Of a DNA stretch of 64,000 bases, positions 24,063 to 28,738 are shown in pieces. The notes under the pieces were generated by a model. It ran no database searches, was not told the DNA's origin, and worked only from the letters and a program-made list of their open reading frames with translations. The stretch covers positions 1 through 64,000 of the IMG/VR virus record IMGVR_UViG_3300017766_004544. The stretch is one strand, 5' to 3'. Numbering within the stretch: position 1 is the first letter of the stretch; the number at the start of each line of letters is the position of its first letter. This stretch comes from a virus (Duplodnaviria > Caudoviricetes). The position numbers and the translations under genes were made by a program.

Positions 24063-24500
24063 ATGTCAGCGAAGACGCGCTTTGACTTGATCCCCTTTGC
24101 CGCTGTGGGCGAGATTGCGGACGTCCTGGCCTATGGCGCCGAGAAGTACAGCGCCAATAACTGGTGTCGCGGCACTGAATGGGGGCGCTATTTCTCAGCG
24201 CTCTGCCGTCACATCTTCGCCTGGTGGCGCGGCGAGGACCGGGACCCAGAAACCGGTCTCTCTCACCTGGCCCACGCAGGCTGCTGCTTGCTGTTCCTGA
24301 TGGAATACCAGCGCAACGCCTGGGGCACTGACGACCGCTTCTGTGGCCCCGACGGCCAGGCCTTCACCAAGCACGACGGCCGGAGCACCCAGCAAGATGG
24401 CACCACCGGCCAAAGCGCCTGCTGGGTCGGGAGCGACGGCCTGCAGCAGTGCGCGACTACAGGCCCCTCGATCTACGACGACGATGACGGCTTGGACTAG
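24063..24500 (+). CDS. DUF5664 dATP/dGTP diphosphohydrolase-like protein
   Basis: KTRFDLIP..VLAYGAEKY..NNW..RHIFAWW.GED.DPETGLSHLAHA. Confidence 0.88.
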   Translation: MSAKTRFDLIPFAAVGEIADVLAYGAEKYSANNWCRGTEWGRYFSALCRHIFAWWRGEDRDPETGLSHLAHAGCCLLFLMEYQRNAWGTDDRFCGPDGQAFTKHDGRSTQQDGTTGQSACWVGSDGLQQCATTGPSIYDDDDGLD

Positions 24501-24883
24501 CTGACGCCGAACTCCTGGTTGATGCGGTTGATCCGATCGGCCAGAGAATTCAGCTGCGCATTGATCGCCGTGTTCAGTTCAGCCGGGGCGGCACCGCTGC
24601 CTCCGAACACGGCCTGGGCCCGGGCCTGTTGGACCGTGGCGGCCTGGCGCTGCGCTTCGATCTGAGCGACCTGCGCGAAGGCTTGCTGCACCTCAGCCCT
24701 GGAGATCATCGTCGGCACCTGCTCCTTGAGCTCGTTGACCTGGCTGACCAGCTCGCTGAGCTGCCCGCCCACGGCCTTGACCTGGTACGAGAGCCGGCGG
24801 CGTCCCGCGCTCAGCACAATGGCTTGCCCGGAGGCCATGCCGATCAGCATGGCGGCCGCACCGGTGATGACGTAGCTGATCAC
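24497..24883 (-). CDS. Membrane-anchored coiled-coil protein
   Basis: N-terminal TM, Q/A-rich helices. Confidence 0.65.
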   Translation of the reverse strand: MISYVITGAAAMLIGMASGQAIVLSAGRRRLSYQVKAVGGQLSELVSQVNELKEQVPTMISRAEVQQAFAQVAQIEAQRQAATVQQARAQAVFGGSGAAPAELNTAINAQLNSLADRINRINQEFGVS

Positions 24884-25356
24884 GAGATTCTCAGGCGAAT
24901 GGTTTTGGCGGCATCCAGCAGGTTGGTGGGCAGAAGTTCGCGCTTCTGCACGACACCCACGACGGCCTCGAGCAACTGGGCCTCGGTGGAATTGGAGCCC
25001 AGGCGTGCCTTGAGGTTCTCACTGGTCTTGCCAGCGGCGGCGCTGGGGCGGTACCGGCGCTCGATCTCGCTGACGGCCTGAGCGACGTCCTTGCGGCTGA
25101 GGGACCCGTCAGCCAGCACGCCCGTGACCAGCTCCATCGCGAAGCGCACCTCACTGCTGCTGTACCCCTTCATGTGCTCGTTCAGCAGGGGATCGATCAC
25201 CGCAAAGGCCCTGCGGATCACCGGCAGAAACCGGCGCAGTTTGAGGTAAGTCAGCAGGGCGTTTGTGCCAATCGGCAGGGCAATCACGCCCGCCCCGATC
25301 AGCGCTGGCTCTGCGATGGCTAAAAAGCTAGCCATGGCACACATAATGCACGACAC
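24880..25356 (-). CDS. Membrane-anchored hypothetical protein
   Basis: N-terminal hydrophobic segment. Confidence 0.6.
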   Translation of the reverse strand: MSCIMCAMASFLAIAEPALIGAGVIALPIGTNALLTYLKLRRFLPVIRRAFAVIDPLLNEHMKGYSSSEVRFAMELVTGVLADGSLSRKDVAQAVSEIERRYRPSAAAGKTSENLKARLGSNSTEAQLLEAVVGVVQKRELLPTNLLDAAKTIRLRIS

Positions 25357-25376
25357 CGGTAATGTATCCGGTGCGC

Positions 25377-26489
25377 CTACATGCGCAGCAGCTGAGCTAG
25401 CGCAGGGGTGATCTTTGTGCGCCCGCCGGGCAGGGCCAGGTGGATATGGCTGTCATGCCCGCCGACTGGATCATCGCCGGGATGGAAGATCTCCGCGCCA
25501 GGCAGGGCGGCCTTGAGTTTGGACCCGATCTGCTGCGTCAATGAGCGCCAATCGGAATCTGCCCGGCCCTTGAGCAGGGGCGAGCCGGGCTGGATGGTCA
25601 GGTCCAGAGCATTGCCGTCGTAGTGATGCGAGTTCGGCGAATGCTGACCCACGCCGCCAAAGGCCGGGTTCTCGGCCACCTTCAGCCCCATGCCCTGGAG
25701 CTGCTTGCCGAGCGAGACGATGTCCAGCTCGCCGCCTAGATCGCCGCCCGGAGTGCTCGCAGAGGGCAGCGCAGGCTGAGGACTCGCGGTCGCTACGGCT
25801 CCGGCGGCGGGCGCCGCCCCAGGCAGCAAGGCGGTCACAGCCGCGATCTGAGCCTCCAGGCCAGGGGAAGCGCCAAGGGCCGCCATCCGCCCGGGCTCAC
25901 GGGGCTGCGCCTGTGCCGCCTCCAGGCTGCTTTGCACGAGGGCGGCGGCCACTGCTGCCAGGGGATCGCCGGGGCGGCGATCCCCGAAACCTGCACCGCC
26001 ATCCAGGGGGTCGACCTCCTGCGTCAATCGGGCGGGCAATGGCGAGGCATCAGGACTGCCGCCGATCACCGGATCGAACTTCTGAGAGAACTGCTTGTAG
26101 AGATCACCACCCGGCAGCATGCGCTTGGCGGCGGCGTCCGAATTGGTCCCGAAGCTGTCGGTACCGGACTGCCCTGGATTGCCGACCAGGACCGTTCTGT
26201 AAAGCTCGGTTGCTCCATGTTTGCCGGGCTGGAACCCCCGCTGCTGGAAGTATTTCTCAACGAACGGCAACTGGCCGGCAATCGTCATCGGGCCCTGGGG
26301 CAGCCCCACCTCCTTGCGGGCCCCAGGTCCGAATTGAATCAAGCCTCGATATTGACCGCCTGCACCACCCCAGATGTTGGGATTGGTCCCAGATTCCAGC
26401 TCAAACAGGGCACCCAGCGTCCTCGGGTCTACGCCAAGTCGTTGGGCGGTTGACGCAATCGCTGCAGCATCGCCCTTTGTCAGTGCCAT
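25377..26489 (-). CDS. Bifunctional peptidoglycan hydrolase (SLT-like plus M15-like), probably virion-associated
   Basis: LESG..GLIQF; HSPNSHHYDGNALD..HDSHIH. Confidence 0.8.
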   Translation of the reverse strand: MALTKGDAAAIASTAQRLGVDPRTLGALFELESGTNPNIWGGAGGQYRGLIQFGPGARKEVGLPQGPMTIAGQLPFVEKYFQQRGFQPGKHGATELYRTVLVGNPGQSGTDSFGTNSDAAAKRMLPGGDLYKQFSQKFDPVIGGSPDASPLPARLTQEVDPLDGGAGFGDRRPGDPLAAVAAALVQSSLEAAQAQPREPGRMAALGASPGLEAQIAAVTALLPGAAPAAGAVATASPQPALPSASTPGGDLGGELDIVSLGKQLQGMGLKVAENPAFGGVGQHSPNSHHYDGNALDLTIQPGSPLLKGRADSDWRSLTQQIGSKLKAALPGAEIFHPGDDPVGGHDSHIHLALPGGRTKITPALAQLLRM

Positions 26490-26845
26490 TACAGACCCGA
26501 ATCATCGTCAGGAGTCAGGACGATTTCGTCCATGTCCAACTCCATTGTGGCAATTTCCCACATCTCACGTAGATAATCATTCGCCTCGTCTTCTGTGGGC
26601 GCATAGCCCATCAGGTCTTCAAACTCTTCGCGCGTCTCAGGCTGCTGCCATGGATGTCTCTCCTCCAGGAAGAACATGAACCCAGCTTCCCGGCTGTTCG
26701 CAATGAAGGTCTGCTTGAGCTTGAATCGCGCCTCCCAGGAAGTGCACAAAGCTTCGACGAGTTCGTCCTTGCTCATGGCCTTGGCCTCGATCTCGACCCG
26801 GCGCAGCAGGTACTTCTGCTCCGAGGTCAGCTCCATGTCCTCCAT
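26489..26845 (-). CDS. nblA: NblA-like protein with acidic C-terminal extension
   Basis: MELTSEQKYLLRRVEIEAKAMSKDELVEALCTSWEARFKLK matches the NblA consensus pattern. Confidence 0.65.
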   Translation of the reverse strand: MEDMELTSEQKYLLRRVEIEAKAMSKDELVEALCTSWEARFKLKQTFIANSREAGFMFFLEERHPWQQPETREEFEDLMGYAPTEDEANDYLREMWEIATMELDMDEIVLTPDDDSGL

Positions 26846-27230
26846 GGCCTTCTCCGTGACGGAACCAGGTTTCAGCTGCGGAAGCGGCGAAAGAGGGCTG
26901 CAGCCATGCCTCTATTTTCGCGGCCCTGCGCTCACAATAGAAATCTTGTTGAACGTACCAGGCGCGCCAGTCCCTGGCACTACCTTTGGCCGCGTTACAA
27001 GCCCGGCAGGCAGCGACCAGATTGGAGCGCAAGCTGCTGCCACCGAAGGCCCTGGGCTTGACGTGATCCAGGGTCATCGTCAACGGCCGGCCGTCTTGGC
27101 CAGCGCTATGGCCGCAGTAGGCACAGCCGCCCCATTCGTCCTTGATGGCCTGACGGAAGCGCCGCCTGGCCCCACTGGGCGATAGATCGATGAGGCTGAA
27201 CACATAGTCATCCCAGTGTTCTGGCGTCAT
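26637..27230 (-). CDS. HNH endonuclease with long C-terminal tail
   Basis: CAYCG..TLDHVKPRAFGG..NLVAACRACNAAKG. Confidence 0.85.
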   Translation of the reverse strand: MTPEHWDDYVFSLIDLSPSGARRRFRQAIKDEWGGCAYCGHSAGQDGRPLTMTLDHVKPRAFGGSSLRSNLVAACRACNAAKGSARDWRAWYVQQDFYCERRAAKIEAWLQPSFAASAAETWFRHGEGHGGHGADLGAEVPAAPGRDRGQGHEQGRTRRSFVHFLGGAIQAQADLHCEQPGSWVHVLPGGETSMAAA

Positions 27231-27363
27231 CCGCCGTCTTCGGTTGAGGCAACGCTAGGCAGCAGCCACAGTGCGCAAAATGAGTGCCGCCTCGAACCTT
27301 TCTAGGATGCCGGCTTGCGATACGGCTGACAGGGCGTACACTGACGCCGTCTCCGCTGGGACG

Positions 27364-27639
27364 ATGACCGAAGAGGCCCGCCTGCTACTGGATCGCATGG
27401 ATCAGCTCGAGTCCAAACTCGAGACGATCCTGGAGTCGCTCGGCTGTCGTGAGACCGAGCAGTGGATCGACCGCAAAAACGCCTGCCGCCTGCTGGGCAT
27501 CAGCGACAGCCACCTGCTCACCCTGATTGCCAAGGGCACCATCAAGGGCGACTCGATCCGCAATGTCGGTACCGCCAAGAAGGCGCGCTACCGCTTCCAC
27601 CGGGTCAAGCTGCTGAATCAATACCTGGCTCGCGCTTGA
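27364..27639 (+). CDS. Excisionase-like winged HTH protein
   Basis: WIDRKNACRLLGIS..LL..I.KG..YRF; convergent with int. Confidence 0.7.
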   Translation: MTEEARLLLDRMDQLESKLETILESLGCRETEQWIDRKNACRLLGISDSHLLTLIAKGTIKGDSIRNVGTAKKARYRFHRVKLLNQYLARA

Positions 27640-28738
27640 ACTTATGGCCGATGCGCTCGCGCAGCGCAGCCATGTGCCGCCGGTCGATCCAGTGCCGGTA
27701 GGTGTTGTTGTGAATCTCAACAGAGTGGCCCATCAGCCGCGCACCCACGTCGGAGCTGATGCCGTACTTCAGCAAGCGGATCGCATAGGCGTGGCGCGCC
27801 GCATAGAGCGGCATGGCAATGCCCTGGTCCCGCAGGTAATCGTTACAGGCCCGTGACACCTTGAGCTTGTCCTGGCTGGGGCGGTGCATGTGATGCAGCC
27901 CCAGCTCCTCGATCCACTCCTCCGGGCAGGCCCAGACCTGCCGGTTGCCGGTCTTGGTCTCGTGGGGCACCTCCAGCACGCCGTCGGCCCCCAGGGTGCA
28001 GCCAATGATCTCGTGGGGGCGGATGCCAAAGGCCATGACGATCCCGAACATCCAGCGCCAGTGCGGCAGGCGGAGGCGGCCCCAGAACTCCAGCAGCTCC
28101 TCATCACTCGGAATCACCCGCACCTGCAGTTCGGCGCGGCTGTAGCCAGCCGCCGCCTGGGCAATCGCCTCGCGGTCGACCGGCAGGTCCAGCAAGGCAA
28201 GCGCTTGACTAAAGACCGAGCCGGTGGACTTGCGCGAGCTCGGCGATTCGACCTGCAGCAGCGCGGCCACCAGGCGCTCCTGGTCGCAGGGCCCGCGCAT
28301 GTCCCGCAGCAGGGCGATCGCCGGCTTGTACTTCTTGCCCCAGATCGTCGCCCAGCTCTTTTCGACCTCGGGGTACTTGCGATCGAACAGGGCCTCGATC
28401 GCCTCGCAGAACTGCGGCATGGTCACCGTGGCGGCGGCGTCCTCGCCCCGCAGCCGCGCCGCTAGGCCCTCGCCCTCCCAGTCCCCCCAGTGGAAGCGCC
28501 CCTCCAGCAGCTGCTCCTCCAGCTCGAAGGCCGCTGCCGCTGCGGTCTTGAGCTGCTCGGGGCTGGCCTCTAGGCCCAGGGCGATACGGGCCTGGCGGCG
28601 CTTGCCTGGGTCGTTCTGGTCCGGCAGCGTGCCCCGCAGATAGAGGCGGTTGCCGATCTGGGCGATGCTGCAGCGCTGGAGCTGGGCGTTCTTGCGCCGC
28701 AGCTGCGGTGCCAGGTTGAAGGCAGGGACTGGGGCCAT
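27605..28738 (-). CDS. int: Tyrosine integrase with N-terminal arm-binding domain
   Basis: RLYLRGTLP arm domain; GIRPHE, TKTG, ARHAYA, LMGHS..H..TY. Confidence 0.92.
   Translation of the reverse strand: MAPVPAFNLAPQLRRKNAQLQRCSIAQIGNRLYLRGTLPDQNDPGKRRQARIALGLEASPEQLKTAAAAAFELEEQLLEGRFHWGDWEGEGLAARLRGEDAAATVTMPQFCEAIEALFDRKYPEVEKSWATIWGKKYKPAIALLRDMRGPCDQERLVAALLQVESPSSRKSTGSVFSQALALLDLPVDREAIAQAAAGYSRAELQVRVIPSDEELLEFWGRLRLPHWRWMFGIVMAFGIRPHEIIGCTLGADGVLEVPHETKTGNRQVWACPEEWIEELGLHHMHRPSQDKLKVSRACNDYLRDQGIAMPLYAARHAYAIRLLKYGISSDVGARLMGHSVEIHNNTYRHWIDRRHMAALRERIGHKFKREPGIDSAA

Follow-up and report, generated by a model that had tools for sequence, protein, structure and literature searches.

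The window analysed here, 64,000 nt of DNA, is the first 64 kb of the virus record IMGVR_UViG_3300017766_004544, a complete sequence of 82,229 bp with direct terminal repeats and about 61% GC. On its minus strand, an open reading frame (ORF) for an HNH endonuclease of 197 aa (26637..27230) runs into an nblA-like ORF encoding 118 aa (26489..26845). The two genes share a dual-frame stretch of 209 nt (26637..26845, minus strand), in which the nblA-like frame is offset by +1 from the nuclease frame. The initial annotation of this DNA had noticed an NblA-like domain in another frame inside the last 209 nt of the HNH ORF, and both ORFs are indeed found at these places.

The nuclease consists of a conserved core and a long tail. 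The core, residues 1-113 (26892..27230, minus strand), carries the zinc-finger HNH pattern CxxC...DH...N...CxxCN, recognised by Pfam, PHROG and alignment. Residues 36-85 match Pfam HNH_5 (PF14279) at 39.8 bits against a cut-off of 27.5 (E 4e-10), Pfam HNH (PF01844) scores 35.7 bits against a cut-off of 21.4, and PHROG 2214, HNH endonuclease, is matched at E 1e-21. Residues C36, C39, D55, H56, N70, C75, C78, N79 and K82 are invariant among 33 relatives. In the AlphaFold2 (AF2) model the core is predicted with block means of the predicted local distance difference test (pLDDT) of 88-96 over residues 21-110, except for a value of 78 at residues 61-70. Conservation of the core ends at about residue 113, corresponding to about nt 26892, which agrees with the earlier placement of the end of the HNH domain near 26890. 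The tail, residues 114-197 (26640..26891, minus strand, with the stop codon at 26637-26639), lies over the nblA-like gene from 26845 downward. It is predicted to be disordered, the AF2 model giving pLDDT below 50 for residues 115-197.

The tail appears to be a property of this lineage. HNH homologues elsewhere match only the core of about 112 residues, and the window tail is disordered in the model and mostly unconstrained. More than 130 cyanophage isolates have HNH homologues, with matches confined to about residues 1-119. The HNH proteins of the three isolates inspected are 109-115 aa long or carry a different tail of about 35 aa, none has the LGG motif described below, and none of their genes is followed by an nblA-like partner; the HNH protein of PSS2 has an unrelated short tail. 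A search with tail residues 110-197 against 5.8 billion proteins returned nothing at E <= 0.01, not even the tail itself, and the missing self-match fits an HNH ORF that is left uncalled in public data. A basic RGG-like tail was also considered and is ruled out by the net charge of the tail, which is -4 to +6.

NblA acts as an adaptor through which phycobilisome proteins are delivered to the ClpC protease. By profile and modelled fold, residues 4-55 of the 118-aa product (26681..26836, minus strand) are an NblA-type domain, predicted as a helix-turn-helix hairpin. The AF2 model of the whole protein has a mean pLDDT of 80, with helices at residues 8-23 and 26-53 and block means of 90-94 over residues 11-50. 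The suspicion that the protein might not be an NblA in structure is answered by a wide search with VIA-align, in which the three NblA structures of the search set took ranks 1, 2 and 4 among 48,161 chains. The values against the AF2 model were Z 6.9 and a root-mean-square deviation (rmsd) of 1.2 Å over 52/52 positions for 1ojh, Z 6.4 for 2q8v, and Z 5.3 and an rmsd of 1.1 Å over 48/48 positions for 3cs5. Foldseek with the same model found no match at E <= 0.001 in the PDB or BFVD.

Sequence profiles lend the NblA-like identity further support. Pfam NblA (PF04485) matches the window protein at E 0.0057 over residues 5-34 and profile positions 1-30 of 50; it also matches 44 of the 47 aligned family members at E <= 0.1, with a best E of 7e-6, mostly under the curated cut-off. 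A homologue search gathered 33 relatives of 111-128 aa, conserved over their whole length. The profile of this family, run against all PDB sequences, has NblA 3cs5 as its first match (E 0.036) and 1ojh as its second (E 0.47), and both alignments span nearly the entire NblA chain. The motifs L-[ST]-x-E-Q-x-[FY] and S-[RK]-[DE]-[EQ]-L are common to the family and the NblA proteins of the PDB. Among 1.84 billion representative proteins the family profile reaches only 56, nearly all of them 110-121 aa long. One of the 56 is a bona fide NblA of 60 aa (P0087, 34.9 bits on Pfam NblA), reached at E 6.7e-4. The E-values that link the family to bona fide NblA (0.036, 0.47 and 6.7e-4) are all marginal. 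Neither the 118-aa protein nor a marine relative had a match when searched by tblastn against 50,697 isolate phage records.

The remainder of the protein, residues 56-118 (26492..26680, minus strand), is an acidic extension with a net charge of -17 and an isoelectric point of 4.1; the net charge of the whole protein is -19. An unusual acidic extension of about 70 aa had been reported for this gene, from which the stretch at residues 73-97 was quoted. The extension is real and conserved, and its measured length is 63 aa. The initial annotation proposed that it may serve to recruit ClpC or to mimic DNA. Conservation in the family runs along its whole length, M101, E102, D104, M105, I108 and L110 being invariant, and the net charge is -9 to -17 in 15 other lineages. 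The best-conserved motif of the family, ATMELDMDEIVL, lies at the end of the extension (26516-26551, minus strand), and the AF2 model places two short helices at residues 72-79 and 85-100. The extension has no relative in Pfam, PHROG or the PDB, and a search of the ESM Atlas with it gave no usable match. In a protein of 2559 aa (P0065), 11 separate stretches match the extension (profile positions 69-99, E 2e-13); the likely explanation is a repeat protein rich in acidic residues, matched through its composition.

The nblA-like gene has a start of its own. A Shine-Dalgarno-like sequence, GGAGAAGG (26848..26855, minus strand), ends 2 nt before the nblA-like ATG, with its GGAG core 6 nt upstream, and lies inside the HNH coding sequence. 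In most relatives a motif of the GGAG or GGAGG type precedes the start by roughly 5-12 nt and is embedded in the HNH frame. Followed upstream from the start, the nblA-like frame meets a stop within 0-12 nt in several relatives, and lineages that have no HNH gene use the same start. A programmed frameshift fusing the two products is made unlikely by the gene's own Shine-Dalgarno sequence and ATG, by the use of this start without HNH, and by the upstream closure of the frame. The initial annotation had the nblA-like gene overprinted on the nuclease; the direction is the reverse. For NblA there are homologues without an overlap, both in cells and in further phages, for the HNH tail there are none, and for this reason NblA is taken as the older frame and the tail as the younger one, laid over nblA.

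The case for a real overlap comes from its conservation in relatives. Scans of viral, metagenome and genome contigs revealed 64 loci encoding an nblA-like relative, and these include 47 distinct nblA-like sequences at loci with an HNH gene and enough upstream sequence. All 47 display an overlap of 149-209 nt with the same frame offset. Protein identities among these relatives span 43-97% and the GC content of the locus 39-66%; the HNH cores are 50-98% identical and the HNH tails are 54-84 aa long. Under resampling of synonymous codons, the chance of so long an open frame is P 0.0002-0.2 per lineage, with a median simulated first stop at 8-89 nt. Combining these values by Fisher's method yields P 6e-13 over 16 deep representatives and P 1.4e-8 over 8 clades, approximate values given that the lineages share ancestry and are not fully independent. 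The HNH frame acquires a stop wherever the third base of an nblA-like codon is T and the next codon begins with AA, AG or GA. Such stop-prone dicodons with T are found in 0 of 936 cases inside the overlaps and in 182 of 913 outside; about 47 of these 182 are the HNH stop codons themselves and were left out of the accompanying significance test. A natural control is provided by four loci from three lineages (L057, L058, L063 and L041), where the nblA-like gene directly follows a recombinase and no HNH gene is present. There the second frame closes at 8, 53, 53 and 86 nt. The overlap is thus selected, not accidental.

It might be argued that a long HNH frame has stayed open by chance in GC-rich DNA, or was extended by a recent stop loss, and that the real nuclease ends before the nblA-like gene. 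The window genome taken alone leaves room for this, as 5.9% of the trials in synonymous-codon resampling show a second frame without a stop over 209 nt or more (P = 0.059). The tail is also predicted to be disordered and resembles off-frame sequence, and public gene callers omit the HNH ORF. However, the frame is open in every relative that has an HNH gene, even at 39% GC, and no relative in the 33-sequence alignment has a stop near residue 113. The range of protein identities excludes recent copies of a single sequence, the controls close the frame early, and one part of the tail is under motif-level selection. A stop loss confined to one genome does not agree with 47 relatives that keep the overlap, and we consider a chance frame extremely unlikely.

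The selection on the second frame is concentrated in a short block. Overall, amino acid identity in the HNH frame among deep lineages is 0.311, against 0.266 ± 0.006 under a null model that preserves the nblA-like protein and the codon composition found in the overlap and admits no stops. The entire excess comes from HNH residues 165-175, where the family motif is LGGx[VI][SQ]A[EQ]AxL and identity reaches 0.618, with the null at 0.418 ± 0.026; the tail outside the motif is at the null (0.240 against 0.230). In the window, these doubly constrained 33 nt (26706..26738, minus strand) encode LGGAIQAQADL in the HNH frame and WEARFKLKQTF, residues W37-F47 in helix 2, in the nblA-like frame. L165 and G166 are invariant and G167 is at least 90% conserved in the 33 sequences. 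The HNH leucine is retained through CTG, TTG, CTT or CTC codons even where nblA-like W37 is replaced by L or S, and the residues seen at nblA-like position 39 all belong to those with GNN codons, as the HNH glycine requires. As far as comparison of the sequences can tell, selection on amino acids in the tail is thus restricted to this one motif of 11 aa.

Base composition bears a further mark of the second frame. The wobble position of nblA, which is the first codon position of HNH, has a G frequency of 0.42-0.49 in the overlap against 0.19-0.30 and is poor in T in all GC classes. GAG is likewise preferred over GAA in the overlap in all GC classes, even at low GC. Between near-identical strains, the three single-nucleotide polymorphisms (SNPs) of the overlap are all silent in the nblA-like frame, while they replace tail residues (V184I, G145S and G131R) and create no stop; thus the nblA-like frame is the dominant constraint. 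Among 19 clear SNPs from contigs of four runs, the lower density in the overlap is not significant (P = 0.30). The lineages that have no HNH gene carry WYTKFQ.KAAY or a similar sequence in the helix-2 block, not WEARFxLKQxF, and sit on long, unplaced tree branches of 1.1-1.2 substitutions per site. The change in helix 2 fits a relaxed or different constraint in the absence of the second frame.

The first codons of the motif contain GGAGG (26731-26735, minus strand; nblA-like codons 37-39), which is unchanged across 16 deep lineages, including those in which the nblA-like residue differs. The pentamer is a perfect Shine-Dalgarno core and lacks a suitably spaced start codon behind it. One might suppose that the passage of ribosomes, and not the peptide, is what matters: ribosomes on the HNH gene, translating the tail across the nblA-like start site and the 150-200 nt behind it, would tune nblA-like initiation by occlusion or by unfolding the mRNA, and LGG would be a nucleotide element. 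Such an account draws on the invariance of GGAGG as nucleotides, on the freedom of most of the tail from amino acid constraint, and on the position of the nblA-like Shine-Dalgarno sequence and ATG inside the HNH frame. In addition, the minus strand from 27230 to 24497 has no promoter-like or terminator-like site that we found interrupting it. Yet coupling or occlusion needs no read-through of 150-200 nt, whereas all the tails reach the motif. The shortest, with an overlap of 149 nt, end three to five residues past it, and the frame must accordingly stay open for at least about 149 nt. The use of four codons for the HNH leucine, the over-conservation of motif positions past GGAGG ([SQ], A, A and L) and the lack of a usable start codon behind GGAGG also speak for the peptide. 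RNAalifold predicted 0 pairs over the motif region. We judge an effect of ribosome traffic alone to be unlikely.

The reading we regard as probable is that both products are made, the NblA-like protein serving as a proteolysis adaptor with an acidic binding surface and the nuclease carrying a disordered linker and a docking motif. The nblA-like protein would be translated from its own Shine-Dalgarno sequence and ATG, both inside the HNH gene. The C-terminal tail of the nuclease would have arisen when the HNH frame was extended, at an offset of one base, through the sequence coding for the NblA domain. About 50 residues of this tail may form a disordered linker that is free to vary and need only avoid stops; it would lead to LGGx[VI][SQ]A[EQ]AxL, apparently selected as a peptide and a probable docking motif for a partner. 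The lineage-specific acidic domain ending in ATMELDMDEIVL may supply the NblA-like protein with a second binding surface. Given the role of NblA as a ClpC adaptor for phycobilisome proteins, the 118-aa protein would therefore most likely direct the breakdown of host antenna or other proteins during infection, and we infer that it targets phycobilisomes and the Clp protease. 

Several observations weigh against this reading. The structural Z values of 5-7 are modest for a helical hairpin, and the window protein scores 17.5 bits on Pfam NblA, under the curated gathering cut-off of 25. Modest Z values are as expected for a hairpin of 50 residues, and published viral NblA proteins likewise score low on Pfam (10.1101/494369). 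One of the two nblA-like genes of the related marine lineage, which may or may not be the orthologue of the window gene, failed to complement an nblA knockout of S. elongatus (10.1101/494369). Synonymous divergence between close pairs is about equal inside and outside the overlap (pS, the proportion of synonymous differences, 0.28 against 0.35) and is saturated for deep pairs. Beyond the motif, the constraint on the tail amounts to stop avoidance and base composition only, and the shared ancestry of the lineages tempers the combined probabilities. GGAGG could be an element at the nucleotide level instead of an LGG peptide; it may also simply be the LGG codons, or a pause site. No RNA run containing the stretch turned up among the listed sequencing runs.

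A different role for the 118-aa protein would be that of a partner of the nuclease—an inhibitor, a chaperone or an immunity-like protein, as in colicin DNases and their Im proteins—or of a lysis factor, with the hairpin as a mere scaffold. Tight coupling of the two genes across the lineage, a net charge as low as that of the window protein and its sub-threshold Pfam score are compatible with such a role, as are the overlap of its stop with the endolysin start and the spanin farther downstream. A related marine nblA-like gene is inactive in S. elongatus (10.1101/494369), and a second nblA type in clade R of the T7-like phages also follows an HNH gene (PMC12695635). Nevertheless, the nblA-like gene occurs without HNH at the four loci mentioned above, and the small HNH genes of three isolates do without such a partner downstream. 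The N-terminal domain retains the NblA motifs over the whole extent of NblA, and its best structural matches are NblA chains. These observations make the role of nuclease partner or lysis factor improbable. Similarly doubtful is a functional coupling of the nuclease with the NblA-like adaptor, in which the motif and helix 2, encoded by the same 33 nt, bind a common partner or each other. If true, the coupled pair would tie DNA cutting or packaging to the degradation of host proteins, or the acidic protein would gate the nuclease; dual coding would then hold together a nuclease and an auxiliary metabolic gene, a link of a new kind.

The two genes stand between an integration module and lysis genes. 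Downstream, an endolysin-type gene of 370 aa (25377..26489, minus strand), with SLT and M15-like parts, shows a weak match to Pfam SLT and matches to PHROG peptidase and tail-lysin families. Its ATG overlaps the nblA-like stop codon (26489-26491) as TAATG. An ORF of 158 aa with no assigned family separates the lysin from an Rz-like spanin of 128 aa (24497-24883), identified by a PHROG match. The nblA-like gene is thereby the first gene of an apparent lysis cassette (24497-26489), a position that suggests co-expression with the late lysis genes. On the other side lie a xis-like gene (27271-27639, plus strand) with a weak match to the helix-turn-helix family HTH_17 and a tyrosine integrase (27605-28738, minus strand; PHROG 1 integrase, E 8e-10). 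Nuclease, nblA-like gene and endolysin, all in one direction, would make up a dual-coding module of a temperate picocyanobacterial phage, located between its integration module and its lysis genes.

The order int/xis, HNH, nblA-like and lysin recurs in freshwater and marine relatives with detectable flanks. In three relatives (L068-L070) a serine recombinase stands in place of the tyrosine integrase: at 656-1936 of these contigs a recombinase of 426 aa (PF00239) is encoded, and their nblA-like protein is 86% identical to that of the window. Relative to window positions 27605-28738, the integration module is swapped beside a conserved HNH-nblA-like-lysin block. The initial annotation had proposed that a homing nuclease might spread nblA, so that HNH and nblA-like would form a mobile cassette carrying an auxiliary gene between phages. 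This swap, the presence of the nblA-like gene at the same site in lineages that may have lost HNH or never had it, and the HNH-nblA pairing reported in T7-like clade R (PMC12695635) could be read in its favour. The module nonetheless has a fixed position between int/xis and the lysis genes in most relatives with detectable flanks, and this nuclease gene is the only HNH-domain match in the 82-kb genome. A single copy, invariant catalytic residues and the observed identities of the core are as expected for vertical inheritance, and no relative of the 118-aa protein was found in the isolate phage records. The proposal is not supported by these data, and we find such mobility very unlikely.

The region is encountered in other environmental data as well. 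Runs of three studies contain at least half of the sampled words of window positions 25400-27700, and two of these studies may represent the source sample; smaller shares of the words are found in about 14 further freshwater, lake and wastewater metagenome studies (2017-2025). Contigs from four sequencing runs are more than 95% identical to the same positions. In a scan of the contigs of 185,579 species genomes, no prophage was found in any cyanobacterial genome, and the sole match is a 23-kb contig with the same HNH/nblA-like overlap (L073, PBAY01000002.1) in a metagenome-assembled genome labelled Phycisphaerae. This contig is probably a cyanophage fragment mis-binned in a non-cyanobacterial genome, the same binning problem having been described by Nadel et al. 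for other nblA contigs.

The closest described arrangement is that of the T7-like cyanophages, in which nblA overlaps an upstream exonuclease gene by 94 nt and up to 110 nt (PMC12695635). The S-TIP37-type NblA is experimentally active and shortens the latent period (PMC12695635). In S-TIP37 (NC_048026) we read a 95-nt overlap of nblA and exonuclease with a +1 offset. As in the window phage, the 3' end of an upstream nuclease gene contains the 5' part of nblA, and the relative frame is the same. The S-TIP37 overlap, however, ends at the start of NblA helix 1, while that of the window family, with its 149-209 nt, covers most or all of the sequence coding for the NblA domain. The upstream gene encodes a T7-type exonuclease in S-TIP37 and an HNH nuclease in the window phage. 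The S-TIP37 NblA, of 78 aa, is devoid of the acidic C-terminal domain present in the window protein, and the motif selected in both frames sets the window family's overlap apart. By tblastn, the nblA of S-TIP37 and the window nblA-like family have no similarity. The window arrangement is thus new relative to the T7-like case in its phage lineage, upstream nuclease, longer overlap, doubly selected segment and added acidic domain.

The second nblA type of T7-like clade R is situated downstream of an HNH gene, with no overlap reported (PMC12695635). Judged by this description, clade R phages have the same HNH-nblA order as the window phage on a different backbone, a T7-like genome of about 45 kb against an integrase-bearing lineage of about 82-86 kb. 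The small HNH core family is common to P-RSP2 and the window phage; in P-RSP2 an HNH protein of 115 aa is followed by a large gene and no nblA. In S-TIP37, gp51 is an HNH protein of 109 aa encoded between terS and terL, with the same zinc-finger HNH motifs. Among the matches listed, small cyanophage HNH proteins are 36-52% identical to the window core within residues 1 to about 119, and a tail overprinted on the next gene (54-84 aa) is seen in the window lineage only. Compared with cellular NblA (PF04485; 1OJH, 2Q8V and 3CS5), the window protein has the same two-helix hairpin of about 50 residues, with rmsd of 1.1-1.2 Å, and the motifs L-[ST]-x-E-Q-x-[FY] and S-x-[DE]-[EQ]; it is 15-23% identical and, through its acidic extension, twice as long.

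A nearer relative of the phage itself may be an uncultured marine cyanophage lineage of about 86 kb with an integrase and one or two nblA-like genes (10.1101/325100). One of the two nblA-like genes of this lineage was shown to be active in S. elongatus (10.1101/494369). Of its nblA types, G1 is active and G1b inactive, and either may correspond to the window family. In the portions of these two papers that were available, NblA is trimmed to its Pfam core and the C-terminal domain, the HNH gene and the overlap are not mentioned (10.1101/325100, 10.1101/494369). The marine lineage and the window phage agree in genome size (about 82-86 kb) and in having terminal repeats, an integrase and nblA-like genes with low Pfam scores, and the marine relatives of the window gene are found on viral contigs of 48-85 kb with the same int/xis-HNH-nblA-like-lysin order. 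The window phage belongs to the uncultured nblA-carrying lineage described in 2019 or sits close to it, as a high-GC freshwater member.

Public gene calls bear on how such loci are recorded. In three relatives (L068:1936-2501, and likewise L069 and L070), the nblA-like gene is called and about 565 nt upstream of it are left empty, while an intact HNH ORF of 197 aa (2116-2709) is present in the uncalled region. The overlap is probably longer than standard gene callers allow, so that they leave out the HNH gene, and the only HNH nuclease of the phage therefore goes unreported in those gene calls.

Viral NblA was recently shown to shorten the latent periods of cyanophages and to depress oceanic photosynthesis. 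The present finding adds a longer, distinct form of NblA with a conserved acidic domain, carried by phages, from fresh water and from the sea, of a temperate-type cyanophage lineage without a cultured representative. The finding likewise provides a well-controlled natural case of same-strand dual coding over 149-209 nt, in which the older and the younger frame are clear, loci without HNH serve as controls, and one segment is selected in both frames.

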